Shown: positions 39,899-58,321, counted from the stretch's first letter. The stretch is DNA of 64,000 nt from Candidatus Multivoradales bacterium (GCA_965223325.1 CBDCWI010000002.1:2272001-2336000); one strand, 5' to 3'. Translations and numbers: made by a program. The notes: generated from the sequence alone by a model not told the origin.

Positions 39899-40789
39899 TC
39901 AGACGTCGAGACCGACATCTAGATTCGGTGCACTGTGGGTGAGCCAACCCACCGACATTTGATCGACGCCGGTGGCAGCGATCCCGGGTGCGGTCTCAGG
40001 GGAGATTCCGCCTGAAGCTTCGGTGAGCACGCGACCGTCACAAAGCGCAACCGCCTTCTCGAGGCCTTCGAGGGTGAAGTTGTCGAGCAGGACGGCATCG
40101 ACACCGATCGCCAGGGCCTCTTCGAGCTGTTCGAGCGAGTCGACCTCGAGTTGAATCTTGACCATGTGCCCCACGCCAGCGCGAGCCCGGGCGACAGCCT
40201 CCTCGACCGAGCCGGCAATCGCGATGTGGTTGTCTTTGATCAGCACCGCGTCGTCGAGACCGAAGCGGTGGTTCGTGCCACCGCCGCAGCGCACCGCATA
40301 CTTCTCGAGCGCCCGCAGTCCAGGAGTGGTCTTGCGCGTGCACACGATGCGCGTACGTGCGGCCCCGAGCGACGCCACCAGGTCGCGGGTGGTGGTGGCG
40401 ATTCCACACAGGCGACCGAGCAGGTTGAGGGCGGTGCGCTCGGCGGTGAGAATCGCGCCGGCGGGCCCCTCGATGCGCGCGATCTCGGTGCCCGCCGCAG
40501 CGTCTTCGCCATCGTCGACCAGGATGGTGATCTCACAGGCAGGATCGAGCAGGCGAAAGACCTCGAGTGCCGGCCGCACACCAGCGACGCGACCCGGCTT
40601 CCTCACCACGACGCGTGCCACGGTCGTAGCTGCGGCCGGAACGATCGCCTCGGTGGTCAGGTCACCGGCTTCGCCGAGATCCTCTTCGAGCGCCCGCCGT
40701 AGGAGCGGCTCGACGATGAGACGATGCGGAGGGCGCAGACTGTTGCGCGCGGTGGAGTTGCCTGAAGCGGAGTTGCCCGAAGTGCTCAA
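39899..40789 (-). CDS. nadC: Nicotinate-nucleotide pyrophosphorylase (QAPRTase)
   Basis: ALEEDLG..GDLT, ERTALN, TRKTTPGLR, HRFGLDDAVLIKDNH, LLDN, EASGG; TTG start overlaps the nadB stop. Confidence 0.95.
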   Translation of the reverse strand: MSTSGNSASGNSTARNSLRPPHRLIVEPLLRRALEEDLGEAGDLTTEAIVPAAATTVARVVVRKPGRVAGVRPALEVFRLLDPACEITILVDDGEDAAAGTEIARIEGPAGAILTAERTALNLLGRLCGIATTTRDLVASLGAARTRIVCTRKTTPGLRALEKYAVRCGGGTNHRFGLDDAVLIKDNHIAIAGSVEEAVARARAGVGHMVKIQLEVDSLEQLEEALAIGVDAVLLDNFTLEGLEKAVALCDGRVLTEASGGISPETAPGIAATGVDQMSVGWLTHSAPNLDVGLDV

Positions 40790-42531: not shown

Positions 42532-42599
42532 TCCTGGCTCCGGTTCAGAGGGTTGGTCTGCGAGTTCCAATGGCGTATCGATCGGTTGAAGGGCGCGGT

Positions 42600-43664
42600 T
42601 CAGTTGACTGGCGCACCCGGCGTGCGGGTGATCTTGACCTCGAGCATGCGCTCGACCGCCCGGCGCGCACGCTCGGCGACGTCTTCCGGAACCGTGACCT
42701 CGTGGGTCATGTTCTGGAGCGAAGCCAGGATCTTCGGCAAGGTGATGCGCTTCATGTGCGGGCACAGGTTGCAGGGGCGCACGAACTCGGTCTTCGGGTT
42801 GGCGACCGCGACGTTGTCGCTCATCGAGCACTCGGTGATCATCACCACGCGCTCCGGCGCCTTGTCAGCGACCCAACCACTCATCGCCGAGGTCGAGCCC
42901 ACGAAGTCCGACGCGTTGCAGACTTCGGGCGGACACTCCGGATGCGCCAGAACCACCACCCCCGGGTAGCGCTCGCGCGCATCCTCGATGTCACGCGCGG
43001 TGAAGCGCTCGTGAACCTCGCAATGACCCTTCCAGAGAATCAACTCGACGTCGGTCTGGGTCGCAACCCAGTTGCCGAGGTACTCGTCGGGCAGAAAGAT
43101 CACCCGGTCGACACCCAGCGACTCAACCACGTCGACCGCGTTGCCCGAAGTGCAGCACACGTCAGACTCGGCCTTCACCTCGGCCGAGGTGTTGACGTAG
43201 GTCACCACCGGCACGCCCGGGTAACGCTCCTTGAGCAGCCGAATGTCGGCACCAGTGATCGAGTCAGCCAGCGAACACCCGGCACGCATGTCCGGTATGA
43301 GCACCGTCTTCGACGGATTGAGGAGCTTCGCAGTCTCGGCCATGAAGTGCACCCCACAAAGAACGATCACCGAAGCGTCGGTCTCGGCCGCCAACCGCGC
43401 CAGGGCCAGCGAGTCGCCCGAAAGATCGGCCACCCCATGGAAGATCTCGGGCGTCTGGTAGTTGTGCGCCAGGATCACCGCGTCGCGCTCCTTCTTGAGC
43501 TTGTTGATCGCATCGATATAGGGCGCATGCACCGCCCACTCGATCTCCGGAATCACGTCCCGTACACGCTCCCAGGCATCCGCGGTGGCAAGTGCCACCT
43601 CCGGCGTATAGAGCAGGACGGAGTTCTCGGCTGCTTTGTTGGAATCGGAAGCTCTGGCGGTCAT
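42600..43664 (-). CDS. nadA: Quinolinate synthase
   Basis: [41 protein letters not shown]. Confidence 0.97.
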
Positions 43665-43700
43665 CGGGTGAGGTCTCCTGAACTCGCAGTCTGCGAAATA

Positions 43701-43721
43701 TTATGCTCGATCTGAGCATAA
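43701..43721. promoter_or_regulatory. NadQ operator 1
   Basis: TTATGCTC-GATCT-GAGCATAA matches both arms of the 21-bp NadQ consensus ttATRCTC-N5-GAGYATaa; 37 bp upstream of nadA. Confidence 0.85.
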
Positions 43722-43765
43722 AGATCGGTCAAGAACAGCCGATTCCTAGGAGAATCGGCCAGCTT

Positions 43766-43786
43766 TTATGCTCGATATGAGTATAA
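43766..43786. promoter_or_regulatory. NadQ operator 2, overlapping the nadA -10 element
   Basis: TTATGCTC-GATAT-GAGTATAA. Confidence 0.85.
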
Positions 43787-43809
43787 GGTCCTGAGAACAC
43801 TCTTGTCAA
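43780..43809 (-). promoter_or_regulatory. Sigma70 promoter of nadABC
   Basis: Minus strand TTGACA (43809-43804), 18-bp spacer, TATACT (43785-43780). Confidence 0.7.
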
Positions 43810-43865
43810 GAACTTTCGTGGGCTCCTTCCTGGGCGACTCGAACTGGGAGTCTGTCGAACAGAGG

Positions 43866-43894
43866 TTGACAGTGGGCACGCAGAAGTACATACT
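43866..43894 (+). promoter_or_regulatory. Sigma70 promoter of vapBC, likely leaderless transcript
   Basis: TTGACA-N17-CATACT ending 6 nt before the ATG at 43901; no SD; AAGTA-CA-TACTT palindrome over the -10. Confidence 0.65.
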
Positions 43895-43900
43895 TTTCGT

Positions 43901-44161
43901 ATGAAACGTACGTCTCTTACGATTGACGAGCAGCTGCTGCAGGAGGCCCAGCGCTTGAGTGGCGAACGCAGCTACTCTAAAACCGTCGACCGGGCTCTGC
44001 ACGATTTCGTCAAGCGCATCAAGGCCCGCAGGATCCTCGAGCTGCGTGGCAGAGACCTATGGCGAGGCAGCCTCGATGAGATGCGCGGTGATCAGCCGGG
44101 CCGGGCCACAGGACCGGTCGCGGCAGTTCGGCAAGACGAAGTCGCAGAAGGCGATCCGTGA
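43901..44161 (+). CDS. vapB: Type II TA antitoxin, VapB family (RHH)
   Basis: MKRTSLTIDEQLLQEA...KTVDRAL...L.G...W.GSLDEMR; GTGA overlap with the PIN toxin. Confidence 0.88.
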   Translation: MKRTSLTIDEQLLQEAQRLSGERSYSKTVDRALHDFVKRIKARRILELRGRDLWRGSLDEMRGDQPGRATGPVAAVRQDEVAEGDP

Positions 44162-44547
44162 TCCTCGTCGATACCTCGGTCTGGATCGAGTTCTTCAACA
44201 GTTCGAGCGACCTCGACCTGGAAGCTGCCATCGACTTCGATGACATCGTGACCTGTCTGCCGGTTGTCCAGGAGATCCTGCAGGGCTTCGACAATGAGCG
44301 CGCCTATCGCCTGGCCCAGGAGGCACTGGCGAGCTTCCCGATCGTCGAGTCCCCACTCTCTCTGGAGGTCTTCCACGAGGCCGTTGACCTCTACCGCTCC
44401 GCCCGGCGCAGTGGCCACACGATCCGGTCGAGCGTCGACTGCCTGATCGCCGCCTGCGCAAGACGTAACGCGCTCACGATTCTTCACCGCGACCGTGACT
44501 TCGATGCCCTCGCACAGATCGCGCCGCTCGAAGTCGTCCGGATCTAG
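44158..44547 (+). CDS. vapC: Type II TA PIN-domain toxin
   Basis: MILVDTSVWIEFF, QEILQG, SSVDCLIAA, LHRDRDFD. Confidence 0.93.
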   Translation: MILVDTSVWIEFFNSSSDLDLEAAIDFDDIVTCLPVVQEILQGFDNERAYRLAQEALASFPIVESPLSLEVFHEAVDLYRSARRSGHTIRSSVDCLIAACARRNALTILHRDRDFDALAQIAPLEVVRI

Positions 44548-44626
44548 GACGGCCCCTGCCAGACAGCGAAAACGGCGCCCCGGGTTCTCACCGTGAGCGC
44601 CGTCTCGCCTTTCTCGGGGTGAGCCT

Positions 44627-45469
44627 CTAGTCGGAAGTCTCCAGCGCGTTGTCGAGCGCTGCTTTGAACTCGTTGAACGCCTTCGCGCCACGCAGGAATG
44701 TCACGCCAGTGACCTTGGTGGGATCATTCGGGTCGGTTCTGGCCACCACGAAGCTCGGCGTTCCGCTGGCGCCGACCTTCTGCGCCTGCACCATGTCATT
44801 GCGAACCGACTTGGCGTAGGTCTCGGCTTCCATGCACTGCTCGAACTCGGCAACGTCGAGACCGAGCGTTTCGGCGTGCGCATTGATGGGCTCGATCTTC
44901 TTCTGGTTGGCAAACAGCAGATCGTGCATCTCCCAGTACTTGCCCTGGTCGTTGGCACAGTGCGTCGCTTCAGCGGCCGTAAAGGCGTCTTTATGAATCG
45001 ATTCCAGCGGTAGATCGAGAAGGGCGTAGCGGATCTTGCCGGTGTCGACGTACTCCTTCTGGATCTGCGGCAGGGTGTTCTGGGTGTAGCGGGCGCAGAA
45101 CGGGCACTGATAGTCGGTGAACTCGACCAGGGTGACCTTCGCGTCCTCGTTGCCCTTTAAAACGTTGTTGCCAAGGTCGATCGTCATGCCTGCAACCGAC
45201 GGGCCGGTTGGGCGCGCGGGTGCTGCCGCGGCGGGCCGGGCAGCGAGCTGCTTGGAGATCTCCTCGAGCTGCTTGCGAATCTCGGCCTGGCCGGCCTGTA
45301 GAGCATCGATCCGGCGTTCAAGGTCGATCTCGCTACGAATCGCGTCCTGCCCCGCCTTCAAGGCCTCGATCTCACGACGGAGTTCCTCCTGGTCCTTCTG
45401 GGCCGCGAGCGGGGCGACGAAAAGGGCACCGAGACTGACGGCGACCAGAATGCGTTTGGTGTGCTTCAT
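44627..45469 (-). CDS. DsbA-family periplasmic thiol-disulfide oxidoreductase with N-terminal coiled coil
   Basis: AAGGAG RBS, signal peptide, duplicated coiled-coil unit (RREIEALKAGQ / RRIDALQAGQ), EFTDYQCPFC, GASGTPSF. Confidence 0.9.
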   Translation of the reverse strand: MKHTKRILVAVSLGALFVAPLAAQKDQEELRREIEALKAGQDAIRSEIDLERRIDALQAGQAEIRKQLEEISKQLAARPAAAAPARPTGPSVAGMTIDLGNNVLKGNEDAKVTLVEFTDYQCPFCARYTQNTLPQIQKEYVDTGKIRYALLDLPLESIHKDAFTAAEATHCANDQGKYWEMHDLLFANQKKIEPINAHAETLGLDVAEFEQCMEAETYAKSVRNDMVQAQKVGASGTPSFVVARTDPNDPTKVTGVTFLRGAKAFNEFKAALDNALETSD

Positions 45470-45671
45470 CGTTTCTATCTCCTTTGAAAACTCTTGCCTC
45501 GCGCGATTCGATGCGGAGGCTCGACTCTGAACTTGACGGTGCGGTGTTTCTTTTCGGTACCGCTTGGGCAAACAACACGGCCCGCCGGACGAGGAGGGTT
45601 CCCTGAATCAGGGCTTCAATGAAGAGTCGACGTTTCCGCGGAAACGTCTTCGGCGGTTTGGCCAAAAAAAC

Positions 45672-45687
45672 AGCAATCCCCGTGCCA
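45672..45687 (-). promoter_or_regulatory. Sigma54 (-24/-12) promoter upstream of dsbA
   Basis: Minus strand TGGCACGGGGATTGCT is an exact match to TGGCACG-N4-TTGCW. Confidence 0.75.
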
Positions 45688-45760
45688 TGGAACGAAGCTT
45701 CACAGCGGCATAGGAATGTTGAGAAGAACCTATCTTACGCACCCGGTTCTCCGCCGGCAG

Positions 45761-48169
45761 TCACGGTTCATAACTCCACCCGTCCACCATCAAGCCGTTG
45801 TTTTTCGAGTAGCCCACCTGGCGCAAGGTAATGAGTCCTTGTGCATCGCGCACCAGGGTGGTTGGCGTGCCACTAACCTGATAGGCGATCTGGCTCTGGC
45901 GCAGTGGATCGACCGCGACGACGGAGAAGAAGGCCTCGTCCCAGCCGTCGAGGAAGCTCGAAACCTTCTCGGAGCTCTCATCGCTGATCGCCACCACCGG
46001 TAGGCCGCGACTCTCAGCAAACGCCAGGACCTCAGGCACCGCCGCCTTGCAGGGGCCACACCACGTCGCCCAGAAGAAGAGCACCGCGGGCTCCGAGGCG
46101 GCGGGCGCATCGCCACGAACCAGCTTCAGATTGTCAGGCAGCCGCGGCGCCGCCTCCCCCACCGTCGGCGGGCCAGTGAGCTCCGGCCACACGCGCGGGT
46201 ACGGCTCGAGTTCGAGATGGGCCAGGAAACGCTCGTCGCGATCGAGCGAGGAACCCAGCCTGACCACCTCGATCGGCAGCGGAACGCCCTGCGCCGAGAC
46301 CATCGTCCACTCTTTGAGCTGGCGCTGGGTCTCGAACAGGCGACCGGGCGGCCCGAGAAGAACGTCACCTGGCTCGAAGCCGGCGCGCTCGGCTGGAGAG
46401 TCGGGGTAGATGACGTCGAGTAGGGTCGCGCCTTCGGGAAGGTGGCGCGCTGCCCGCACATCGGGCGAAAGCGGCCTGAAACGCACGCCGAGCCAGGACG
46501 GCTGCAGTTCCTTCGCCAACAGCAAGTCCTCTTCGAGACCAGGGAAGGCATTGGTCACCCGCACAGGCGGCTCGTCCATCGCGTTGCCAAGGCCAATCTC
46601 GAGGCTTTCGCACTCCTTGAGCGCCGCCAGCGCCGCCTGCTTGGCTTCCAAATCAGGCGCTTCCATCAACGTCCTGCCGGCAATCGACACGAGGATGTTG
46701 CGCATCCGCTGGAGCACCGCCATGCGCACCTCGAGCCGGTACTCAGCCTCATCACCCTCGAGGGCGTTCTGCTCGAGGCGCTCCAGACGCTCGCGCAAGG
46801 AGCGCCGGTAGTAAACATAGTCACTGGTGTGATCGAGCACCTGCTCGAGCAGCCACGCACGACTGGTCGCGTCCAGATTGCTGAGCGCATTCTTCGACAG
46901 GCGCTTCTCGAGCTCGGGATGTTCTTCCGCAACCGCCCGCAGGATTCCTTCCTTGAGGTCAACCAGCGTTTCATTCCAACGCTTAGTGTAGGTCGCAATC
47001 TCCTCGCGCAAGGCCTCCAGATCCGCCACATAGCCCGCCATCTCAGCCAGGCTGCGCGGGCTGAAGGTGCCATAGGCATCGCCCAGCCGATCGAGGAGAC
47101 GGATCTCGGGCTCCCAGCGCGCCCGGTCGCGCCACGCCTCCTCGAGGAGCAAGTCGGCGAAGGCGTCGAGCTCGAGATTCGCGGCAGTCGCAGCAGCCTC
47201 GAGCGTGCGCAGGAGGTAGAGGTCGCTGGTGGCCAGGGGGATATCAGGCGTCGCGTCGGTTTCGATCACCTGCCAATGCGCCTCTGCCGTCGTCTCGACG
47301 CGGTCGAGCGCTTCGATGAACCGAAAGGCATGGCCGATGCGATCTCGATCGCGACCTTCCGGGTAACAACCGTAGGCCCGTCGATCACGGGTGGTCGAAA
47401 AGAAGCCGCACACCGAGCCGTCGGGCTCTGAGCCATCGGGGTCGAAGATCAGTTCCGCGAAAGAGCCGGAGTAGCACTGCGACATGACCATCGTGGTGCT
47501 GGTGGTCTCGGGCAGGAGGCCAAGCATTGAGCGCAGCTCTTCGACCGAGAGCTTCTCTTTCCACATTGAGATGTGGTTGTTGGCGGGGTCTTCCTTGTTG
47601 AGGGTGCCGTGGTCGGTGACGAAGAGGAAGAGTTTCTGGCCCTGTCCCTCTGAACCCTGAAACCTGGTGAACTCGCCCTCGAGGGCCGAGATAGTGGCCT
47701 CTTCAAAGCTTGGACCGCGCCACGTCGTATCAATCAACTCGGTCTGTGGGCGCAGGCGCTTACCGGCTCGTGTGCCTTCGATCAACCGGTAGCGATCGGG
47801 TTTTGGATCGCGCCGGGCCAGGTCCTTACCGGGGTCCTTGCCGTCGGCAGAGAGAATCGAGATGGTGTGGTTCGGGAAACCCGCAGCCAGCAAGTGCCTC
47901 GTCAGGTCTTCGAGGTGGTTCAGATGAGAAAGATAGTTCGAAGTGGGATTGTGGCCGCCGTTGAGGAGGATGGCGTTCGTGATCTTCGCTTCGGCCGTCG
48001 CGTCGTTGGTTCCGGTCGGATAGGAAGCGGTCGAGCCTTCAAAATGAGCCGGTTCCTCTGCCATTGCCTTCGCCGCAGTCGAAGCGGCAAGGAGAGGAAG
48101 CAAAGCCAGGACGGCCGCCACCCGACGAGAGAAGCGTCCCACGGAGATCGCAAGAAATCCTCGAGGCAT
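45761..48169 (-). CDS. Secreted clan CD (C13 legumain-like) peptidase - helical linker - PDZ - TlpA/thioredoxin fusion
   Basis: Signal peptide; AILLNGG..NY..H; LFVTDHG (His); MSQCYSGSF (Cys); WLGV...DSPAERAGFEPGDVL (PDZ); FWATWCGPC and GTPT (thioredoxin). Start moved from 48322 because that segment spans a terminator. Confidence 0.8.
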   Translation of the reverse strand: MPRGFLAISVGRFSRRVAAVLALLPLLAASTAAKAMAEEPAHFEGSTASYPTGTNDATAEAKITNAILLNGGHNPTSNYLSHLNHLEDLTRHLLAAGFPNHTISILSADGKDPGKDLARRDPKPDRYRLIEGTRAGKRLRPQTELIDTTWRGPSFEEATISALEGEFTRFQGSEGQGQKLFLFVTDHGTLNKEDPANNHISMWKEKLSVEELRSMLGLLPETTSTTMVMSQCYSGSFAELIFDPDGSEPDGSVCGFFSTTRDRRAYGCYPEGRDRDRIGHAFRFIEALDRVETTAEAHWQVIETDATPDIPLATSDLYLLRTLEAAATAANLELDAFADLLLEEAWRDRARWEPEIRLLDRLGDAYGTFSPRSLAEMAGYVADLEALREEIATYTKRWNETLVDLKEGILRAVAEEHPELEKRLSKNALSNLDATSRAWLLEQVLDHTSDYVYYRRSLRERLERLEQNALEGDEAEYRLEVRMAVLQRMRNILVSIAGRTLMEAPDLEAKQAALAALKECESLEIGLGNAMDEPPVRVTNAFPGLEEDLLLAKELQPSWLGVRFRPLSPDVRAARHLPEGATLLDVIYPDSPAERAGFEPGDVLLGPPGRLFETQRQLKEWTMVSAQGVPLPIEVVRLGSSLDRDERFLAHLELEPYPRVWPELTGPPTVGEAAPRLPDNLKLVRGDAPAASEPAVLFFWATWCGPCKAAVPEVLAFAESRGLPVVAISDESSEKVSSFLDGWDEAFFSVVAVDPLRQSQIAYQVSGTPTTLVRDAQGLITLRQVGYSKNNGLMVDGWSYEP

Positions 48170-48289
48170 CAGGACTCCAACCGTTCGGCTGACAGAGAAA
48201 GCGCGTCGGAGCGAGTAAGCCCTCGATCCGACCGCTGCCACTACACCATAGGCGAAGCCTATGTCGGCCATAGCACCTCTTAGAAGGTC

Positions 48290-48315
48290 AAAGGAGGGCG
48301 CCGAAGCGCCCTCCT
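48290..48315 (-). terminator. Intrinsic terminator-like hairpin after the Cys-rich gene
   Basis: AGGAGGGCGC-TTCG-GCGCCCTCCT, then TT (short U tract). Confidence 0.6.
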
Positions 48316-48360
48316 CCGCCATGAACCCATACGGGTCTTCATTTCAGGTTGCCGATACCG

Positions 48361-51300
48361 CTAGGGAGAAACGCAGCTGAAGAGGTCGTCGGCCTGTGCG
48401 GCGCCCTTGCTCCCCTTCTTCTTCGGCGGCCTTCGCGCCTCCTCGCACATGCTCGGATCTGCTGAGGTGTTGCCCAGCGCCAGGTAGGACTGCTCGAGCT
48501 CCCAGGAGTGGCAGTTGAGGGGTGTGGCAACACACTCGTTCTCGGCCCAGGGACAGGCTTCGGTGGAGCAGTCCGCGCCCGAGGCCGAACAGGTCATTGT
48601 CACACCGTCGTCCTGCAACTCACACTCATCGACATCGCAACTCGGCGCGTCTGCACCACACTCCTGGTCTGGGACGGCAGAGCACGTGCCGGTATAGCAG
48701 TAGCCCTCCATCTCGCCGGTGTAGACAAACGTTCCGCCGTTGTTGTAGCAGTCGACCTGCGCCGAGCACCACACCTGTTCGTCTCGAAGGTCGTCGGTAT
48801 CGTCGCAGGCCAGGTTGCACATTTCGAACAAGGCCTCGACGCTCGAACCGTCGCAGACCAGATCGTTCTGTGCATCCGGAAGGCCATCTCCGTCGATGTC
48901 ATCGAGAGTGTCGTCGCCGTCACCGTAGCCGCTGACCACACAGTTGGCTGCCATCGTAATCAGGTCACGCGCCAGCTTGTTCCGCTTGTCCTTGCCGCTG
49001 TCAATGCAGATGCCCTCGATCGCACAGGTATCGACGGGGGGCGTGGCTGACGGCGGATTGATGCTGACTCCACAGACCTGGAACTGCGTCGCAAGTCCAA
49101 GGCCCGGATCGAGCGCCGCACCGATCACGAGCGCCAGGTTGTCTGGATGAGTGCCCCAGTAGCCAGGCGTTCGACAGACCTCGACCAGGCACATGTCGCC
49201 GTCGGGCTCTTCGACGTTTGAACAACCCGTCACCGAGTCACATGTGTCGGTAGTGCACTCGTTGCCGTCACTGCAGTCGACCGGCGGACCCTCGCAGACA
49301 CCGTTGACACAGAAGTCGCCGCCGCCCGCGCGATCACCGGTACAGGCGTCGTCGTCATCGCATGAGATTGGTGGGTCGTCGGGAACGTTCGCATTGACGC
49401 ATTCGCCCGTGTCCTTCTCGCACGAGTCGTTCGTACATAGGTTGTCGTCGTCACAGTCCTTCGACGAGTCGTTGACGCAAGCTCCGTCGGCATCGCACAC
49501 ATCGAGGGTACAGAGATCGTCATCCTCGTTGCACGGAGTATCGACCGGTTCGTTGTTCGGCTGGCATTCGCCGGTGGCGTCGCACGTGTCGGGGTTCGTA
49601 CACTCATTGTTGGTGCCTGAACCACACGCCGTGCCGGCTGGCTTCGGACCGCCACCGCCGCAGGCACCGGCAGTGCAAACCTGACCGTCGTTGCACTCAT
49701 CGCCAGAGTCCCCACACGACGTATCGTCGGGAGCATCGTTCGGCTGGCATACGCCTGAGGCGTCGCAGGTGTCGGGGTTCGTGCACTCGTCGTTGGTGTC
49801 CGAGCCACACGCAGTGCCGGCCGGCTTCGGACCGCCACCGCCGCAAGCACCGGCAGTGCAAACCTGACCGTCGTTGCACTCATCGCCAGAGTCCCCACAC
49901 GACGTATCGTCGGGAGCATCGTTCGGCTGGCATACCCCTGAGGCGTCGCAGGTGTCGGGGTTCGTGCACTCGTCGTTGGTGTCCGAGCCACACGCAGTGC
50001 CGGCCGGCTTCGGACCGCCACCGCCGCAAGCACCGGCAGTGCAAACCTGACCGTCGTTGCACTCATCGCCAGAGTCCCCACACGACGTATCGTCGGGAGC
50101 ATCGTTCGGCTGGCATACCCCTGAGGCGTCGCACGTATCGGGGTTCGTGCACTCGTCGTTGGTGTCCGAGCCACACGTCGTGCCGGCTGGCTTCGGACCG
50201 CCACCGCCGCAAGCACCGGCAGTGCAGAACTGACCATCGTTGCACTCATCGCCAGAGTCCCCACACGACGTATCGTCGGGAGCGTTGTTCGGCTGGCATA
50301 CCCCTGAGGCGTCGCACGTGTCGGGATTCGTGCATTCGTCGTTGGTGTCCGAGCCACACGTCGTGCCGGCTGGCTTCGGACCGCCACCGCCGCAAGCACC
50401 GGCAGTGCAGAACTGACCATCGTTGCACTCATCGCCAGAGTCCCCACACGACGTATCGTCGGGAGCATCGTTCGGCTGGCATACGCCTGAGGCGTCGCAG
50501 GTGTCGGGGTTCGTGCACTCATTGTTGGTGTCCGAGCCACACGCCGTGCCGGCTGGCTTCGGACCGCCACCGCCGCAGGCACCGGCAGTGCAAACCTGAC
50601 CGTCGTTGCATTCATCGCCAGAGTCCCCACACGACGTATCGTCGGGAGCGTTGTTCGGCTGGCATGCGCCTGCTCCGTCACAGGTGTCAGGATTCGTGCA
50701 CTCGTCGTTGGTGTCCGAGCCACACATCGTGCCCGACGTCGCGAATCCGCCGTCGACACACGCACCGTTGAGACAGACGTCGGCAGGTACACAGACGTCG
50801 CTTCCGTCATCGCCGCAAATCATGGAGTCTGTGTCGCTGAAGTCAGGATCACCACATTCTCCTGCCCCATCGCAGTAGAGGTTTACGGCGCAAACACCGG
50901 TCCCGTCCGTACCACAGCCGCTAGTCGTTGGCTCGTGGTTGGGAACGCACATTCCTTCCCCGTCACAAGTGTCCGGATTGGTGCAGGCGTCGTCTGTATC
51001 GTCACCACACGCTACCCCCTCGCCCTTGTTGCTGATGTCGCAAACCGCAACCGACACGGTGTTGATTACGCAAGCACCAACCTCGCACTGGTTGGCCGTT
51101 GCAGCACAGGCTGCGTTGAAATCAGGATCGTCGCAGTCCTCAGCCGTGACGAGGCAATCTGAGCGGACCGACGGGTTCGATTCCGAGGGAAGCGTGCACA
51201 CGTCTTGGAATTCCGGTGTACCCGTAAAGTCAAGAAAGTCGACCCAGCAGAGCACTGTCGTGTCGGTGCCGACCGTCTCAGGGTCGCCGTCGTCGAACGG

Positions 51301-51792
51301 GCCTTCTGAAGAGTACGAGACCTCGCATATCGTCGCGGGGTCGTCAACAGGCACACCGCCTACGCAGCTAAGTGGCGCAGTGTTCTCGCACGTCAGGACT
51401 TCATACGAGAGTTCGTCAACCGGACCGTTCCCACCGGCGGAATTGATCAGAGTCACTTCGATCGCGTAGTTCGAGTTCCCATCGCCATCAGTGTCGTAGT
51501 AGATCTGAGCATCGAGAGTATTCGCCCCACTGACAGTCGTATCGTCGAAGTTGAAACTAACGTGCTCCTCGTAGGGATCATTGTCTCCAAGGTCGCGACA
51601 TAGGTAGGTGAGATCTTTCTGCCCCGCCTCGTCATCCGCACCCTGGAAATCGGCCGTACAGGTCGTAGGCGCGGGTTCTTCGGCCGCTACCAGTGAAGCG
51701 GCTCCGAAAACCCCGACAAGGCCCATGGCCAGAGTCATCAGACCCAGGTTCTTTGCGCCGAAGCGCCTTCTACAGTTCGCGATACTTCCCAT
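48361..51792 (-). CDS. Secreted acidic cysteine-rich repeat protein (disintegrin-like / Dictyostelium CTDC-like repeats)
   Basis: AAGGAGG RBS before MGSIANC..., signal peptide, about 115 Cys by manual count, DxDxDG motifs, CDDDNLCTNDSC-type repeats, C-terminal CRTPGYWGTH domain. Confidence 0.85.
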   Translation of the reverse strand: MGSIANCRRRFGAKNLGLMTLAMGLVGVFGAASLVAAEEPAPTTCTADFQGADDEAGQKDLTYLCRDLGDNDPYEEHVSFNFDDTTVSGANTLDAQIYYDTDGDGNSNYAIEVTLINSAGGNGPVDELSYEVLTCENTAPLSCVGGVPVDDPATICEVSYSSEGPFDDGDPETVGTDTTVLCWVDFLDFTGTPEFQDVCTLPSESNPSVRSDCLVTAEDCDDPDFNAACAATANQCEVGACVINTVSVAVCDISNKGEGVACGDDTDDACTNPDTCDGEGMCVPNHEPTTSGCGTDGTGVCAVNLYCDGAGECGDPDFSDTDSMICGDDGSDVCVPADVCLNGACVDGGFATSGTMCGSDTNDECTNPDTCDGAGACQPNNAPDDTSCGDSGDECNDGQVCTAGACGGGGPKPAGTACGSDTNNECTNPDTCDASGVCQPNDAPDDTSCGDSGDECNDGQFCTAGACGGGGPKPAGTTCGSDTNDECTNPDTCDASGVCQPNNAPDDTSCGDSGDECNDGQFCTAGACGGGGPKPAGTTCGSDTNDECTNPDTCDASGVCQPNDAPDDTSCGDSGDECNDGQVCTAGACGGGGPKPAGTACGSDTNDECTNPDTCDASGVCQPNDAPDDTSCGDSGDECNDGQVCTAGACGGGGPKPAGTACGSDTNDECTNPDTCDASGVCQPNDAPDDTSCGDSGDECNDGQVCTAGACGGGGPKPAGTACGSGTNNECTNPDTCDATGECQPNNEPVDTPCNEDDDLCTLDVCDADGACVNDSSKDCDDDNLCTNDSCEKDTGECVNANVPDDPPISCDDDDACTGDRAGGGDFCVNGVCEGPPVDCSDGNECTTDTCDSVTGCSNVEEPDGDMCLVEVCRTPGYWGTHPDNLALVIGAALDPGLGLATQFQVCGVSINPPSATPPVDTCAIEGICIDSGKDKRNKLARDLITMAANCVVSGYGDGDDTLDDIDGDGLPDAQNDLVCDGSSVEALFEMCNLACDDTDDLRDEQVWCSAQVDCYNNGGTFVYTGEMEGYCYTGTCSAVPDQECGADAPSCDVDECELQDDGVTMTCSASGADCSTEACPWAENECVATPLNCHSWELEQSYLALGNTSADPSMCEEARRPPKKKGSKGAAQADDLFSCVSP
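49556..50725 (-). repeat. Intragenic tandem repeat, 183-bp unit, six copies plus a partial
   Basis: TTCGGCTGGCAT recurs at 49556, 49739, 49922, 50105, 50288, 50471 and 50654; the unit encodes a 61-aa, 8-Cys module. Confidence 0.95.
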
Positions 51793-52445
51793 CGTCGCCT
51801 CCTTCATTTGGACAGGGACACAACAGGCGGGCTGCTGAACGCAGGTGCCCGCCCCGATTCGCTGCCAGTCACCAATGGTTGGAGACCGCAACACAGACGT
51901 TCGCGCACACCGAGACCTGACTTCGGGCACCAACCGGCACTCTCGAAATCTGTTCTTGCTCTGGAGTGGTGCTCGTCTCGCACGTTGCAGCCTCAATTTC
52001 CCGACCAGGGTCGGGGCAATTCTCGGGACTGACTCTCCAGACAAAAAAAAACGCGAGGCGGCGGTTCGAGCACTGCTGTTTGGCAGCGCGGGGCGCGGGG
52101 AGGACTGACTTCGATGAGACCCGAACTCGGCCCACGGCCATCGCTGAGAAGAGCACTCTAGTCACAGTCAGCAACATATGCAAGAAGGCCAAGAAGCGAA
52201 CCATTCAAGGGATCCACCGCAACCTGGCAACTGAGACAGTCCGGGTACTGTCGGAGCCCGAGACCAGTACCTACGCCCAACCCGGAGGGCTCTTTTCACC
52301 TTCCTGGGCTCCTTTCCCGGACTGGCGCTTTCTTGCTGGCGTCCCGCTCGATGAGCCCGCTGCATTGTCATATCTATCGACGTTGAGCTATGTTACAGCG
52401 GACTCCTACTCCACACCTCAAGGCGATTCCATTCGGGAGGATTCC

Positions 52446-53648
52446 ATGCACATGCTCCACTCCACCAACGCGTCGCTAACAGGAAGCGGCCTTCGACGGC
52501 CGCTCCTCGCAATCGTTGCGACCTTCGCAGCAATCTGGTTCACGCTCCCGGCACTTGCACAGACCGAAGCGACCAAGAGTGAATCTGCTCGCGCGCGCGG
52601 CTGGGTCTCCCATGCCGTCGACGCACAACCCATCGCTCGCGAGCGCAGCCACACGGGAGACGTGCCCCTCTGGGACCAGGGTGATTTTTCGACCACTGAC
52701 AGCAACAACATCTCGAGCTATGTCGTCGCAATGGACATCAGTTTCAGTTCCACAATTCGTTTCGACGGCTTCACGATCTGGCTGTCTGATGACGAGGTGA
52801 ACGACAACGGAGTCCTCGATAGCTTCGCGGGAACGATCTCGTGGGCATTCATGGCCGATGCCGCCGGCGAACCTGGCGATGTTGTCGTAACGGGCCACTC
52901 CGCGATGCCGGACTTGACGGACATGGGCTTTCAGGACGCCTTCGATGCCGACCTGTTCCAGCTCGATCTCGACGTTCCGGCGCTACTGCTCGATGCGGGG
53001 GACTATTGGTTTGCCATTCACGAGGGGCAGTGGGGAGACGCCGACGACGACTCCCCTGTCTGGTGGCAGCACCCGGCGACCACGGTGGGAGTTCCAGGTC
53101 GGCGCAATTTCGACGAGCAGAACCTCAATGACAATTGGGAAACTGCCGGCGACTCAGCTTTCGTTCTCTACGGCGACGGCCTCGATCAGAGCCAGAGCGC
53201 AATGAGCACCAGCGTGACAGGAACACTGGCGCAGTCTTTCAAGCCCAGCGTGCTCTCACTCTCCGGGGTCAGCCTTCTGACCGTCGGCTCGGGCACGGAG
53301 GCCGTCAGTGCCTCGGTCTGGGACGAGCTCCCCAATGACGGTGGAGTCCTGCTCGCTGAGGGCGGAGTTGCAAACGCCAGTCTGGGAGATTGGGTGGAGA
53401 TCTCCTGGCAACCCATCGATGTCGACCCTTCCGAGGATTACTTCATCGTTCTGCCCGCGCATGGGTTCTCCGTTGCAGCGCAGGACGCGAACCCCTATGC
53501 CGATGGCCAGGCCTACGAAGGTGCCGTTTACACACCGAATGCCGCCCGCGATTTGGCTTTTCGTACCTGGGCAACCTATCCGATTCCGTTCTTCGCCGAC
53601 GGTTTCGAAAGCGGTGAAACAGACCGTTGGACGAAGACGGTTCCCTGA
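52446..53648 (+). CDS. Secreted acidic beta-sandwich protein with C-terminal FADGFESG tail
   Basis: GGGAGGA RBS before MHMLHS, signal peptide ending ALA-Q, AGDYWFAI, DLAFRT, ends FFADGFESGETDRWTKTVP. Confidence 0.75.
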   Translation: MHMLHSTNASLTGSGLRRPLLAIVATFAAIWFTLPALAQTEATKSESARARGWVSHAVDAQPIARERSHTGDVPLWDQGDFSTTDSNNISSYVVAMDISFSSTIRFDGFTIWLSDDEVNDNGVLDSFAGTISWAFMADAAGEPGDVVVTGHSAMPDLTDMGFQDAFDADLFQLDLDVPALLLDAGDYWFAIHEGQWGDADDDSPVWWQHPATTVGVPGRRNFDEQNLNDNWETAGDSAFVLYGDGLDQSQSAMSTSVTGTLAQSFKPSVLSLSGVSLLTVGSGTEAVSASVWDELPNDGGVLLAEGGVANASLGDWVEISWQPIDVDPSEDYFIVLPAHGFSVAAQDANPYADGQAYEGAVYTPNAARDLAFRTWATYPIPFFADGFESGETDRWTKTVP

Positions 53649-53971
53649 CCAAAGCGCTCTCGCCTGCCGCCGCCTCGGGCGACGTGTGATTCTTGCGGCG
53701 CAAACACAAATCGATCGGCAAACAGTTCAGAGAGCAATAAAGCGCTACTCGTCGCACGGAGGGAGGATTCTAAGGCCCTGTCTCGAAAAGAGTTAGGCGA
53801 AACAATGCACAGATCTTCATATCGCCGCAGCTCTCTATTCGGGGTTTCCTTGGCGCCCATAGACAACAGTGACATGATCACGCCGGTTTTGGCTCCATTG
53901 TCCTGTTAGCGACTGTTCCACCCGCCTAGCTAGAGTCTGCAGAATTCCCCCTTCAACAATAGGAGGTTCTG

Positions 53972-54880
53972 ATGACTCTCGTCCTCGAACTGCGGCGGCG
54001 ATGGCCGCTAGCCTGCGCATTGATTCCCGTTCTCGGAATCTGCGTCCTCTCCGCCCCGGCCACCGCGCAGGTCGGGCCCGGATCTGAGCTCTTCCAGATC
54101 GGCACGCCTGGTGCGGCCACGGTCGTCGGCAACGCCGACCTGCCCGGCCTCGATTGGGCCGACCTGTTCGACAAGCACGGCCGCACAACCGAATTGGCGG
54201 CCGCCGGGTCACTGGTCTTGTTCGACCAGGACTACGTCTCCAAAGGCGAGGGCTTCGAAGGCAGCGCTGCCGCCGGCCACGGCTTGTTCAACAACGGCAT
54301 CGCCGAGAGTGATCACGACCTCAGCAACGCCTACTTCTACGAGACAACGAACGCGAGTGGCGAGGCGCACCTCTTCATCGCATTCGAACGCCTGGCAACG
54401 GGCGACAGCAAGGTGTGGTTCGAGCTCAACCAGGATCGCCAGAGCATGGGGCGCGGTGGCTACACCAAGAACGTTCCATGGACGGTCGACGGTGAACGCA
54501 CTGTCGGCGACCTCGGTGTAGCTCTCGAGTTCTCCGCCAGCCACATTGCCGGAGTCCTGGTCCAGGCCTGGGACGGCTCGAGCTGGCGCACTCTCACCGA
54601 GCTCGGCGGCGAAGGTTGCGGCGACGGAGACAACTTCTGCATCGCTACCAATGTGGCCGCCATTGAGGGCGGGCCCTGGCACGTCAAAGGCAACGGCAAC
54701 GCCGGTGGCGGGAAAGGTAAGGGAAAAGGCAACGCCAACAAAGGCGATCTCGAAGCCCAGACCTTCATTGAAATGGGAGTGAACCTCGGCGCCCTTCTGG
54801 GAGCCAACCCTGAATACGCGACGGCACAGGCCTGGACGCCTCAGGACATGATGCTTTGCCACCTGTGGGGAGCACGCTGA
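53972..54880 (+). CDS. Secreted hypothetical protein, translationally coupled to the downstream repeat protein
   Basis: AGGAGG RBS, signal peptide (ATA-Q), DLSNAY...FERL...FELNQ...RTVGDL; TGATG overlap with the next gene. Confidence 0.75.
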   Translation: MTLVLELRRRWPLACALIPVLGICVLSAPATAQVGPGSELFQIGTPGAATVVGNADLPGLDWADLFDKHGRTTELAAAGSLVLFDQDYVSKGEGFEGSAAAGHGLFNNGIAESDHDLSNAYFYETTNASGEAHLFIAFERLATGDSKVWFELNQDRQSMGRGGYTKNVPWTVDGERTVGDLGVALEFSASHIAGVLVQAWDGSSWRTLTELGGEGCGDGDNFCIATNVAAIEGGPWHVKGNGNAGGGKGKGKGNANKGDLEAQTFIEMGVNLGALLGANPEYATAQAWTPQDMMLCHLWGAR

Positions 54881-57800
54881 TGAAGAACCTCACCAGTCGC
54901 TATGTAACTCCACTCATCGTTTTCACGGTTCTCGTCCTTCTCGGCTCGGGGTCACCCGTCGCCGCACAGACCTGTATCCAGGATCTTTCGGACTTCGGCC
55001 TGCAATGTACGGCCAAGGACGTCAAGGTCACCAACATCGAAACCGCCAGTGGCGAAGAGCTGGCCTGCCCAGTGGGTGAGGAGATCGAGGTCGACCTGGT
55101 CGCCACTCTGCTCGCCGGCGCGCAGGAGCGCTACGACATCGGAATCTTCGTTTCCGAGAATGAGTTCGCCAATGCCCAGGAAGGCATGTGCGGCGTCTAC
55201 ACCCTCGAACCCACAACGACAGATCCCGCCCTCGCCGGTCCGATGGGGCCCTTCCTCGAGCTCGAGACCTACCCCGACATGTGCGGGGATATCGGCGCCG
55301 AACAGACGGTCATGTACCACTTCACCGCAACGGTCTCATGCGTCGACCTCGACGACGACGGCCTGGTGGATATCGAGACCTGCCTGTCATGGGAGAACAA
55401 CAAGAAGAACGACGACGGGTGCGAAGCACCCGACCCGAATGATCTCGAGAACTTCCAAGCACTACCCGGCACGCCGTCGAAGTGCCGCTGCGAAACCGCC
55501 AACGTCGGCAACCTGGTGGTGGCACCGAAGCTCTCGGTAAAGAAGGAAATCGAGGGCAGCCCCGCATCCGTTCCCGACAACTTCACCGTGGTCGCCGACG
55601 GGCCGGATGAGACGGATCCCGATCCCGACACATCGACCCTCGACGTTCCTTCCGACGGAACACCTGTTGCAGTCCCCGACACCACCATCGGCACCTGGAC
55701 GTTGACTGAAGACGTGCCGATGGGCTGGGAGTTCAAGAGCGTCAGCTGCACCGACGGTACGACCGGCGCGGCCGGTTCGGTCAGTGTCGACCTCGACTAC
55801 GGCGACGAGGTGGTCTGCACCTTCACCAACCGGCAGCTGCCGGGCAACATCATCATCGAGAAGCAGGCCGACTTCGATCCCACGAAGTCCTTCAATTTCA
55901 CGGGCCCAGCCGATTCCTCGTTCTCTCTCCAGGACGGTGAAGACACGGGAATGCAATACGAGGGTCTCGCTGCGGCTACCTATCAGTTCTTCGAACTGGT
56001 TCCTGACGACTGGAGCCTGACAAGCATCGTCTGCACCGATGGATCGTCTACGTCAGAAGTAACGGACACCGACGGCAACCCTGGCATCAGCATCGACCTC
56101 ATGCCGGCAGAGACGGTTCGCTGCGTGTTCACCAACGAGCCCAACGACGGCACCATCAAGATCGTCAAGCACACTGGTATTGAGACCACGCAAGACTTCG
56201 TCTTCAGCGGTGTCCCGACCCCGGACGGTACCGTCACGATCAACGGCACCGATGCCAGCGGCATGAACATGACGGCGGAGATCCCGGCTTCACCGGGTTC
56301 GTACACCATTGGTGAGAACGTCACTCCTGGTTGGTCGCTCACCGGCATCGAATGTACGCCGTCGACCCTCAATGAAGAAAAGGACCTCGCGAACCGGCAG
56401 ACGACGTTTACGTTGCCGCCGGGGGTGGACGCGGTGTGCACCTTTACCAACGAGGAAGACAAGAAGGGCACCTTCAAGGTGGTCAAGAAGATCGTCGGCT
56501 ATGACCCCGGCACAGATGCCGGCGTCTTGTTCGATTTTGACGTGCCATGGTCAGACGACCCGATTCAACTCGGGCACAACAGCATGGCATCGATGGAGCT
56601 CGATCCCGGAATGGTCACCGCCGCGGAAGACGTGGTGAACATGCCGGAGGGCTTCACCTTCGTCGGTGTCCGGTGTGTGAGCGACGCTGACCCGGAAAAC
56701 CCGGAGGTGGCCACGAGCAGCGACGACGCGGAAGTCACGGTCGAGTTGATGGCCGAGGAGACCATCACCTGTACGTGGACCAACAAACGCGTCCCAGGCA
56801 CCGGCAGTATCACGGTCACCAAACAGGCCGAGGACGACTGCCATGCGATGTTCGACTTCGACGTCAGCTGGCTCGAGTCCGACAGTCCGTTCGACCTGTG
56901 GCTCATCGATGCGGATTGCCCGCCGAATGAACATCCAGCGGACATGCTGATCCACGAGAGTGGCGAGCTGGAAGCGCCGATGACCTACACCATCGAGGAA
57001 ACCTTCGTCCAGGACGGTTGGTTCCTTGCCGACATCCAGTGCACAGTCACCGGAGACGGCGGCTCGACCTGGACTCCGGACGTTACGAACCACACGGTGA
57101 GCATCGACCTCGAACCGGGTGACAACGTGCACTGCGTGTTCTACAACGAGCCCGAGGTCCCAGGCACTGGCAAGCTCACTCTCCGCAAGGCAACCTGGCC
57201 GAAGGACTGCCACGCCATGTTCGACTTCGACGTCAGCTGGCTGGACAATACGCCCTACGACCTCTGGTTGATGGAGTGGACGTGCTACGGCAACGAAGCG
57301 CCAATGTTCGAGCTGCCTGCCGGCATTGAGCACACGGTGATCGAAACCTTCATCCAGGAGGGTTGGGCCCTCGATGACATCATCTGCACGAGCGATATGC
57401 CGCCGCCACAAGTCGATATCGACGTCGCGAGCCGCACGCTCAAGGTGACCCTCAGACCCGATGAGAACGTGGTTTGCACCTTCAAGAACAAGGAGGTGAC
57501 CGATGGAACCGGCACCATCATCGTCAAGAAGGATGCACTGAAGAACTACGACGACACCCTCATGTGGGACTTCGAGCTCAGTGGTGGCGATCTTCCGGCA
57601 CCGGTTCAGACCTGGCTCGGAGACGAAGAAAGCACCACCTGGCCTGGCCTCACACCGGGCAACTACTGGCTCAAGGAGCTGTGGGGGCCAAGCGGTTGGC
57701 ACGTGCAGGAGATCGTCTGTAAAGACGAGACCGGCCAGTGGGTAGCGCATACCTATAACGGCCACATGGTCGACATCGACCTCCAGCCGGGGCAGACCAT

Positions 57801-58191
57801 CACCTGTACCTTCGTCAACGCGAAGGACAGCCACATGTACTTCTCGAAGCAGGCGACGCCTGACACGCAGGTGCCGTTCCGCTTCGTCTGGGGCAAGGTG
57901 GTCTACACCGACAGCGGCTGGTCCTATCAGTCGTACTCGTCCTTCGACATGCGTGATGGTGAGATAAAGCATCCCACCCAGAGCATGCCGAGCGGTAAGT
58001 ACTGGCTGTTCGAGTACGCCAGTAGTGGTTGGCAGGTCGACAAAGTGGTCTGTGGCGGGCAGGTGATGCCGGTCTACAGCGCCACCGCCAGAGACAGCTA
58101 CGGCAATCTCCACCCCGGCAAGTTGATCAAGTTCGACCACACCGCTGGCGAAAGCATCACTTGTACCTTCTACAACGAGCCCTGCGAGTAG
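54880..58191 (+). CDS. Secreted adhesin/pilin-like protein with Cys-rich N-domain and eight prealbumin/CnaB-like (SpaA-type) repeats
   Basis: Signal peptide; eight repeats each ending C(T/V)(F/W)xN and containing an aromatic-x-hydrophobic-x-x-(I/V)-x-C strand. Confidence 0.82.
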   Translation: MKNLTSRYVTPLIVFTVLVLLGSGSPVAAQTCIQDLSDFGLQCTAKDVKVTNIETASGEELACPVGEEIEVDLVATLLAGAQERYDIGIFVSENEFANAQEGMCGVYTLEPTTTDPALAGPMGPFLELETYPDMCGDIGAEQTVMYHFTATVSCVDLDDDGLVDIETCLSWENNKKNDDGCEAPDPNDLENFQALPGTPSKCRCETANVGNLVVAPKLSVKKEIEGSPASVPDNFTVVADGPDETDPDPDTSTLDVPSDGTPVAVPDTTIGTWTLTEDVPMGWEFKSVSCTDGTTGAAGSVSVDLDYGDEVVCTFTNRQLPGNIIIEKQADFDPTKSFNFTGPADSSFSLQDGEDTGMQYEGLAAATYQFFELVPDDWSLTSIVCTDGSSTSEVTDTDGNPGISIDLMPAETVRCVFTNEPNDGTIKIVKHTGIETTQDFVFSGVPTPDGTVTINGTDASGMNMTAEIPASPGSYTIGENVTPGWSLTGIECTPSTLNEEKDLANRQTTFTLPPGVDAVCTFTNEEDKKGTFKVVKKIVGYDPGTDAGVLFDFDVPWSDDPIQLGHNSMASMELDPGMVTAAEDVVNMPEGFTFVGVRCVSDADPENPEVATSSDDAEVTVELMAEETITCTWTNKRVPGTGSITVTKQAEDDCHAMFDFDVSWLESDSPFDLWLIDADCPPNEHPADMLIHESGELEAPMTYTIEETFVQDGWFLADIQCTVTGDGGSTWTPDVTNHTVSIDLEPGDNVHCVFYNEPEVPGTGKLTLRKATWPKDCHAMFDFDVSWLDNTPYDLWLMEWTCYGNEAPMFELPAGIEHTVIETFIQEGWALDDIICTSDMPPPQVDIDVASRTLKVTLRPDENVVCTFKNKEVTDGTGTIIVKKDALKNYDDTLMWDFELSGGDLPAPVQTWLGDEESTTWPGLTPGNYWLKELWGPSGWHVQEIVCKDETGQWVAHTYNGHMVDIDLQPGQTITCTFVNAKDSHMYFSKQATPDTQVPFRFVWGKVVYTDSGWSYQSYSSFDMRDGEIKHPTQSMPSGKYWLFEYASSGWQVDKVVCGGQVMPVYSATARDSYGNLHPGKLIKFDHTAGESITCTFYNEPCE

Positions 58192-58259
58192 AGGGCCCCT
58201 GGAACAGAGCCCACGCGCCAGGTTGAGGCTTCGACGCCTTAGACCTGGGAAGTGAATCC

Positions 58260-58305
58260 GGCCGGCTGGATCCGCTACTAGCGGAAACAGCCGGCCTCTT
58301 TCTTT
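58260..58305 (+). terminator. Intrinsic terminator after the adhesin gene, between convergent genes
   Basis: GGCCGGCTG...CAGCCGGCC stem with inner TCCGCTA-C-TAGCGGA, followed by TCTTTCTTT. Confidence 0.6.
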
Positions 58306-58321
58306 GCGATCTCTCCGACCG

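Follow-up and report, generated by a model that had tools for sequence, protein, structure and literature searches.

Peptidases of family C13 (MEROPS C13, PF01650) include legumain, the asparaginyl endopeptidases (AEPs), the peptide asparaginyl ligases (PALs), and the glycosylphosphatidylinositol (GPI) transamidase component GPI8/PIGK, a transpeptidase that acts on the C-terminal signals of secreted proteins. Thioredoxins of the TlpA/ResA/DsbE type are extracytoplasmic reductants. To our knowledge, few bacterial proteins have large numbers of disulfide bonds, and the known Dsb machinery has a housekeeping role. In this work, we analyzed a 64,000-nucleotide stretch of DNA from Candidatus Multivoradales bacterium (GCA_965223325.1 CBDCWI010000002.1:2272001-2336000; hereafter the window) and found three co-oriented genes on its minus strand (44627-51792) that encode a Cys-rich repeat protein, a fusion of C13 peptidase, PDZ, and thioredoxin domains (hereafter the fusion), and a DsbA-like protein. 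An earlier note on this DNA had described three genes for secreted proteins at these positions, and all three frames were recovered on the minus strand. The mobile island that carries them unites a 117-Cys protein with its own putative oxidase and an unstudied reductase-PDZ-protease enzyme, and this pairing is kept across a subclade of the fusion family.

We propose that the DsbA-like protein and the protease-reductase form a pair serving a variable, disulfide-rich cargo through oxidative folding, reductive proofreading, and trimming or quality control, a reading to which we give a probability of roughly one half. Because related bacteria keep these genes together, the pair would probably fold, proofread, or trim the Cys-rich protein.

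The linkage was examined in 137 loci of the fusion family, namely, 64 of 73 genomic loci (the most distant single-domain homologs, L071-L079, were omitted) and 80 metagenomic loci, minus seven duplicates. Neighbors were detected by profile searches of all six-frame segments, and many of the contigs are short. In 19 of the 137 non-duplicate loci, a DsbA-like gene is located no more than about 1.1 kb from the fusion, and 16 of these 19 have it on the same strand; one further DsbA-like match at 4.9 kb was left out of this count. Homologs of parts of the Cys-rich protein were found near the fusion in 10/137 loci. L042, L093, and L114 have all three genes, consistent with a recurrent module, and their order there (Cys-rich, DsbA, fusion) differs from that in the window (Cys-rich, fusion, DsbA). 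When the comparison is limited to the 74 loci flanked by 1 kb or more on each side, a DsbA-like gene is present in nine, a Cys-rich homolog in five, and either of them in 13. Furthermore, among 137 nearest-neighbor open reading frames drawn from 200 (genes called by GC3-GC2 score), the top Pfam family is Thioredoxin_4/DSBA (10), followed by protein kinases (6). A candidate "Rosetta stone" in which DsbA would be fused to the C13-PDZ-thioredoxin protein (L157, 9396-13072) was rejected, as the 955-aa frame is an out-of-frame run-on; this locus has DsbA-like genes on both sides of the fusion, and the upstream one ends just before it in another frame.

In a FastTree phylogeny of 105 sequences (with local supports, not bootstraps), the fusion of the window belongs to a clade of 24 with 100% local support. 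Within this clade, 13 of the 23 other loci have a DsbA-like and/or Cys-rich neighbor (9/13 of those flanked by 1.5 kb or more on each side). Elsewhere in the tree, such neighbors were found in 5/81 loci (1/43 informative loci), and three of these five belong to a second small clade (L113, L127, L114, and L138). The linkage is real but clade-specific, being found in the subclade of the window and one small second clade rather than family-wide. A lack of enrichment of fusion homologs beside Cys-rich genes had been named in the earlier note as an outcome that would count against its proposal; examined for Cys-rich and DsbA genes, the loci did not refute the proposal but show an enrichment in the subclade, with the 9/13 standing against 1/43 elsewhere. 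Proteins that have 10-14% Cys but are unrelated to the Cys-rich protein of the window are encoded 2.5-9 kb from the fusion in 6/15 loci of a deep Myxococcota clade. This Cys-rich family is present at three to six loci per genome and the genomes are related, so the association is a weak hint only and may be due to chance. The genomes of L043, L046, L047, L055, L060, and L069, which are related to each other, have two to three fusion paralogs each.

The partners involved are rare. The genome of the window (6.69 Mb) has two Thioredoxin_4 genes, including the DsbA-like gene discussed here, and from this count the chance of finding a gene present about twice per genome within 1.1 kb of the fusion is estimated to be on the order of 0.001 per locus. 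The Cys-rich protein gene is single-copy and is the most Cys-rich frame of the genome, in which only about five other frames have at least 25 Cys. Also, the N-terminal domain of the Cys-rich protein was found in only one genome out of 401 from one phylum, where it is located 4.7 kb from two fusion genes arranged in tandem (L017). Given this rarity, adjacency by chance is unlikely.

The three genes are located between nadA and nrtR in an island (43700..58320), which is supported by synteny with three relatives (G001, G010, and G007) and by guanine-plus-cytosine content (0.59-0.63 in the island vs. 0.64-0.66 in the flanks). All three relatives examined, of which one is from the same genus and two are from the same family, have nrtR directly next to nadA and share the order of the outer genes, so the 14.6 kb that separate nrtR from nadA in the window (43.7-58.3 kb) represent an insertion; no island was found at the syntenic site in these three genomes. 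The fusion was found in 0/40 relatives searched (37/40 at least 90% complete), and the same was true of the Cys-rich protein. The adjacency of nrtR and nadA in the relatives and these two absences agree with the "accessory block" recognized earlier. The island was acquired horizontally, and the absence of both the fusion and the Cys-rich protein from the 40 relatives points to their co-transfer. In the window, nadA, nadB, and nadC are downstream of the three-gene block and a gene for an NrtR-type regulator is upstream, such that the island splits this regulator from nadA-nadB-nadC (39899-43664 and 58322-59653).

The fusion gene (45761..48322, minus strand) has a longest frame of 853 aa that encodes, in order, a C13 peptidase domain, a helical domain, a PDZ domain, and a thioredoxin domain. 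Based on the homolog alignment, the true start is likely Met52 at 48169, which would place a signal peptide or anchor at the N-terminus; the N-terminus has no lipobox Cys. The AlphaFold2 (AF2) model of the protein has a predicted local distance difference test (pLDDT) score of 81. The profile searches and structure predictions suggested by the earlier note recovered the C13, PDZ, and TlpA-type thioredoxin domains.

The peptidase domain (47198..47989, minus strand) was recognized by Foldseek, by a family profile, and by PF01650. Against Pfam Peptidase_C13 (PF01650, cut-off 22.8), the whole fusion scores 22.0 bits and the domain alone 25.2 bits, and 19 of 24 fusion family members match. The top Foldseek match is the legumain structure 4awb_A (E 7.7e-9; template modeling score 0.57, target-normalized; 263 columns; 16% identity). 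Legumains occupy ranks 1-14, the GPI transamidase chain 8imx_K is found at E 1.3e-6, and the plant AEP/PAL ligases 9vsx, 7f5q, and 5h0i are among the further matches. A profile of the peptidase-domain family searched against PDB also gives legumain first (E 1.8e-5). As the domain alone and 19/24 family members pass the Pfam cut-off and legumain is the best match in both the fold and profile searches, the domain can be assigned to C13 in the broad sense.

The putative catalytic residues are Asn129 (47936-47938), His238 in the motif TDHG (47609-47611), and Cys283 in the motif MSQCYSG (47474-47476), all on the minus strand. These three are invariant in an alignment of 24 homologs and align with legumain Asn42, His148, and Cys189 (DHG and EACESG motifs in legumain). 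The motifs TDHG and SQC(Y/F)SG are also kept in distant single-domain homologs from Legionella, Rhodanobacter, and Bacteroidales (alignment A2). The C13-type peptidase with intact His and Cys motifs that had been read from the sequence earlier is consequently borne out by Pfam, the family profile, Foldseek, and these invariant residues. The peptidase is followed by a helical domain (residues about 376-590; 46553..47197, minus strand) that has no Pfam match and is modeled by AF2 mostly at pLDDT >90, with helices over residues 385-572. Prolegumain entries align with the fusion over 449-474 columns at a root-mean-square deviation of 19-22 Å, and by its position the helical domain is at most a candidate counterpart of the C-terminal LSAM prodomain of legumain.

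The PDZ domain (46208..46537, minus strand) is of the HtrA/DegP type, as indicated by the family profile and a partial match to TIGR02037. DegP, DegQ, and AlgW have the PDZ domains that this profile matches (best E 2.6e-14), and the scores for PDZ_6 (23.0 bits) and PDZ_2 (18.2 bits) are both under the Pfam cut-off of 27. In the AF2 model, residues 613-704 form a beta-rich domain that corresponds to the PDZ. The C-terminal thioredoxin domain (45764..46165, minus strand) is of the TlpA/ResA/DsbE type and has a WCGPC motif with Cys755 (46058-46060) and Cys758 (46049-46051); among the 24 homologs, C758 never varies and conservation of C755 is 90% or more. Its Pfam matches are AhpC-TSA (33.1; cut-off 26) and Redoxin (30.7; cut-off 26.6), and its PDB matches by profile and/or Foldseek are Etrx1/2, ResA, DsbE, CycY, TlpA, and CcmG. 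The thioredoxin with WCGPC that was noted earlier is present; the role then given to it, to form or shuffle disulfides, was overstated, as the domain is of the reducing TlpA/ResA/DsbE/Etrx type. One DsbD_TM gene was found elsewhere in the genome. Of the possible partners of a DsbA oxidase, VKOR was looked for in the genome and not found.

The DsbA-like oxidoreductase (44627..45469, minus strand; 280 aa) has a Thioredoxin_4/DSBA domain with CPFC at residue 122 and scores 104.7 against Thioredoxin_4 (cut-off 23.2) and 58.8 against DSBA (cut-off 25.6). Its start is likely the ATG at 45469, which is preceded by AAGGAG. An N-terminal hydrophobic signal can be read from the sequence, followed by a coiled-coil-like segment. 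About 200 nt upstream of this start is a perfect match to the sigma-54-type promoter consensus TGGCAC-N5-TTGC (TGGCACGGGGATTGC; 45673..45687, minus strand). This is the sole match in the window (0.13 expected; at least one match in 12/100 shuffles), and no such motif was seen in the homologous DsbA-positive loci. The earlier note had placed both a terminator and an internal sigma-54 promoter between the genes. The promoter consensus stands, while the terminator is a weak pattern match, with seven occurrences of the pattern compared to 6.2 +/- 2.6 expected in shuffles.

The Cys-rich secreted repeat protein (48361..51792, minus strand; 1143 aa) is composed of what looks like a signal peptide, an N-domain, repeats, and a C-domain. 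It has 117 Cys (10.2%), 14.4% Asp, and 12.8% Gly. The sole Pfam match is Dicty_CTDC (26.3 bits, just under the cut-off of 27), the tripartite build has no match in NCBIfam and belongs to no curated family, and a protein atlas search with this protein gave no usable match. A second very Cys-rich frame of the same genome, outside the window, encodes 608 aa with 70 Cys (G000:C2:3024953-3026776).

The N-domain (residues 39-232, about 190 aa; 51097..51678, minus strand) was defined by alignment A3 and an AF2 model and has the conserved motifs QGADDxPGQKDLT and FDTDGDG. The model (pLDDT 75) is all-beta, and a beta-sandwich is predicted. A fold search of PDB gave no match at E<=0.001 and a weak likeness to carbohydrate-binding beta-sandwiches (best E 0.017). 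The domain is rare, with three other proteins found by word search, and it is also located beside the fusion in L086, L017, and L162. In L017 (2-4335), two fusion genes, one of which is truncated where the contig stops, are in tandem at a distance of 4.7 kb upstream from the N-domain homolog, which is the sole one in that 8.4-Mb genome. The N-domain heads P0272, which shares the tripartite build of N-domain, repeats, and C-domain. It also heads P0273 and P0274, which are long SpaA/DUF11-repeat proteins ending in LPXTG-like signals that we take to be sortase motifs. This sharing of the N-domain with P0272 and with the SpaA/DUF11 proteins suggests that the Cys-rich protein is a surface, adhesin-like protein with a stalk of disulfide-rich modules.

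The repeats form a tandem array of a 183-bp unit in 6.4 copies (49555..50733, minus strand; Tandem Repeats Finder, 94% matches). The array encodes six near-identical 61-aa units with eight Cys each, which start at residues 412, 473, 534, 595, 656, and 717. A Cys-rich neighbor of the fusion in L042 (2-2353) has a long, nearly exact internal duplication, so recent repeat expansion is not peculiar to the Cys-rich gene of the window. The C-terminal Cys-rich domain (48364..49182, minus strand) has the motif VCRTxGxWxTH and a hydrophilic tail that ends in DDLFSCVSP. It was aligned with P0272, L114, and L085 (alignment A4), and the L114 copy adjoins a DsbA-like gene and the fusion. A word search with the C-domain found no other protein, with a sensitivity limited such that P0272, which has this domain, was missed. 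The C-terminus of the protein, EEARRPPKKKGSKGAAQADDLFSCVSP, is hydrophilic; a cleavable sorting signal with a hydrophobic tail was not found in it, and the tails of the homologs are not conserved. In three Cys-rich neighbors, a Cys is two to four residues from the C-terminus (FSCVSP in the window, 48364-48420; FSLSCP in L114 and PASCI in L086), which is not the case in P0272.

How such a system might operate can be outlined from the domain content, and we infer every biochemical step of the outline, as well as which way the electrons flow and what the substrate is. The exported Cys-rich protein would gain its disulfides from the DsbA-like protein. The thioredoxin domain of the fusion would then reduce wrong disulfides, acting in isomerization or proofreading, and would presumably be recharged by the DsbD-type protein of the genome. 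The PDZ domain may hold exposed C-termini or unfolded stretches, and the C13 domain may cut, either destroying molecules that cannot fold or trimming the client. Reduction by the fused thioredoxin would make knotted substrates cleavable. A complex prediction for fusion residues 110-853 and the last 120 residues of the Cys-rich protein (score 0.00, mark 0.32), in which the fold of the partner is uncertain, gives no evidence either way.

Several observations weigh against this proposal. About 80% of the family loci that have at least 1 kb on both sides (61/74) lack both a DsbA-like and a Cys-rich neighbor, which indicates that a linked client or DsbA is not a general requirement of the fusion; the "dedicated" pathway of the earlier note is overstated. 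No neighbor is conserved across the whole fusion family. The Cys-rich neighbors are mosaic and share modules only in part (N-domain, repeats, or C-domain), so they do not constitute one orthologous gene. Some of the loci are related and cannot be treated as independent, L012, L088, and L089 being near-identical, so the counts given above overstate the number of independent events. The DsbA-like gene may be regulated separately, as suggested by its own sigma-54-type promoter and the 290-bp gap that precedes it. Finally, the legumain pocket is not conserved and so gives no indication of which P1 residue the C13 domain prefers. A family-wide conserved neighborhood was considered and rejected; the largest neighbor cluster, found in 12/64 loci, comprises large low-Cys proteins.

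Some of these points fit a more general role, in which the fusion is a housekeeping-type periplasmic quality-control protease or a self-protecting protease, and the DsbA and Cys-rich genes merely co-travel in islands of secreted-protein genes. The thioredoxin domain would then unlock any disulfide-bonded substrate or keep Cys283 reduced in an oxidizing compartment. Periplasmic reductases are known to protect single catalytic cysteines, as DsbG and DsbC do for L,D-transpeptidases. The family is indeed large and uncharacterized. A word-index search gave 437 fusion clusters (E<=0.001 among 8000 scored), most of them 720-855 aa long with thioredoxin-family Pfam matches, and an exhaustive search gave 1071 representatives at E<=0.001, of which 183 reach E<=1e-30. 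The clusters have only the database names "thiol-disulfide isomerase/thioredoxin," "redoxin family protein," and "C13 family peptidase," and we found no paper on the combination of C13, PDZ, and thioredoxin domains. The titles of the genomic matches are those of metagenome-assembled genomes of Acidobacteriota, Myxococcota, Binatia, and others, mostly uncultured bacteria. Most members stand alone, and the rest of the island in the window also encodes secreted proteins, as expected under this explanation. It leaves unexplained, however, why DsbA is the top nearest-neighbor family and why, within one subclade, rare Cys-rich modules recur by the fusion while the gene order varies. We regard the general role as rather unlikely and the less probable account of this locus.

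A second alternative is specific processing or transpeptidation, in which the C13 domain releases disulfide-rich peptides, cyclizes or ligates modules, or attaches the protein to the envelope, with the PDZ domain reading the C-terminus. C13 is the family of the AEP ligases and the GPI transamidase, and PALs (9vsx, 7f5q, and 5h0i) and 8imx_K are among the structural matches of the fusion. The near-identical modules each have a QPN(D/N)(A/E)P site, and the relatives P0273 and P0274 would, if their LPXTG-type ends are read as sortase motifs, be covalently anchored by another Cys transpeptidase. In legumain, the zwitterionic S1 pocket that confers specificity for Asn/Asp is formed by Arg44, His45, Ser216, and Asp231 (PMC4357240). 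These four residues align in the fusion to Leu/Gln, Ser, Ala, and His, respectively; in the alignment of hidden Markov models, NYRH is replaced by NY(L/Q)S, SSYAC by (x)AYGC, and LGDW by (I/V)GHA, and the replacing residues are themselves conserved across the fusion family. With all four pocket residues replaced, the earlier argument for Asn-specific cleavage at NDA/NNA sites has no basis. Furthermore, the seven QPN(D/N)(A/E)P sites of the protein fall within the 61-aa units, after the fourth Cys and before the fifth, rather than at the unit borders, and the repeats of homologous neighbors are degenerate and lack conserved sites. Anchoring by transpeptidation, also put forward in the earlier note, finds no counterpart in the hydrophilic C-terminus, which has no tail resembling a sorting signal. 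Taken as a whole, the earlier interpretation is upheld in the linkage, while Asn specificity, ligation, and anchoring are not supported.

We consider processing or transpeptidation unlikely. Its most specific form is quite unlikely: the C13 domain would be a non-degradative counterpart of sortase, GPI8, or the AEP ligases that, guided by the PDZ domain and after reduction by its own thioredoxin, cuts at a defined site and releases knotted peptides of 61-aa modules or transfers the protein to an acceptor in the envelope. If this form were true, diderm bacteria would have in DsbA and the fusion a machine, unknown until now, that matures disulfide-rich surface proteins at the secretion stage. The weakest alternative, that the three genes are mere neighbors in a mosaic island, agrees with the separate promoter signal of the DsbA-like gene and the heterogeneous neighborhoods of the family, but it is very unlikely given that the linkage recurs in shuffled order on independent contigs and that the estimated chance of such close adjacency is low.

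The remainder of the island has three genes on the plus strand. Two encode apparently secreted proteins (52446-53648 and 53972-54880) that Pfam, NCBIfam, and PADLOC assign to no family. The other gene (54856-58191) encodes an apparently secreted protein of 1111 aa with 31 Cys and at least six SpaA-type prealbumin domains recognized by Pfam. In L102, a SpaA-like segment is fused to Cys-rich repeats in a gene that adjoins the fusion gene. The island was also considered as a defense system, which was rejected with no PADLOC matches for the six island proteins.

Compared with known systems, the fusion shares its fold with legumain, AEPs, and PALs (PDB 4aw9/4awb and 5h0i), which are its best structural and profile matches. 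The catalytic Asn, His-Gly, and Cys are kept, and a helical domain follows the peptidase at the position of the legumain prodomain. It differs in its low identity (about 15%), in the replacement of the S1 pocket residues, and in being a bacterial, exported protein joined to PDZ and thioredoxin domains. The fold is also common to GPI8/PIGK of the GPI transamidase (PDB 8imx chain K; Foldseek E 1.3e-6). In contrast to that system, the candidate client at this locus lacks a hydrophobic C-terminal signal, there are no partner subunits, and the NYRH motif is not conserved in the fusion.

For the Cys-rich protein, the nearest known families are Dicty_CTDC (PF00526), for which the repeats score just under the cut-off, and the disintegrin-like family PF00200, which has a precomputed match in the homolog P0272. 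The N-domain is shared with the SpaA/DUF11 stalk adhesins P0273 and P0274. Unlike the known Cys-rich repeat families, the protein has a tripartite build of N-domain, repeats, and CRTxGFW C-domain that is without a curated family.

The envelope proteases HtrA, DegP, and DegQ share with the fusion the design of a protease with PDZ, and the PDZ domain of the fusion is most like those of DegP, DegQ, and AlgW. However, the catalytic domain of the fusion is a clan CD cysteine peptidase rather than a serine protease, and a redox domain has been added. Those who produce or process disulfide-rich peptides might take an interest in a protease able to reduce its own substrates, or in a prokaryotic C13 enzyme whose specificity pocket is new. 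If the proposed pairing is true, the Cys-rich protein would be a candidate natural substrate and provide the first functional handle for a fusion family of hundreds of members. The island pairs a CPFC DsbA-family oxidase with a WCGPC reducing-type thioredoxin, as in the systems of DsbA, DsbC-DsbG, and DsbD with TlpA, ResA, CcmG, and Etrx, although the reductase here is fused to a protease and a PDZ domain, and the pair is accessory and cargo-linked rather than housekeeping. Our proposal would make this locus a client-linked folding and proofreading module, which is a variant of the known extracytoplasmic folding and quality-control systems.

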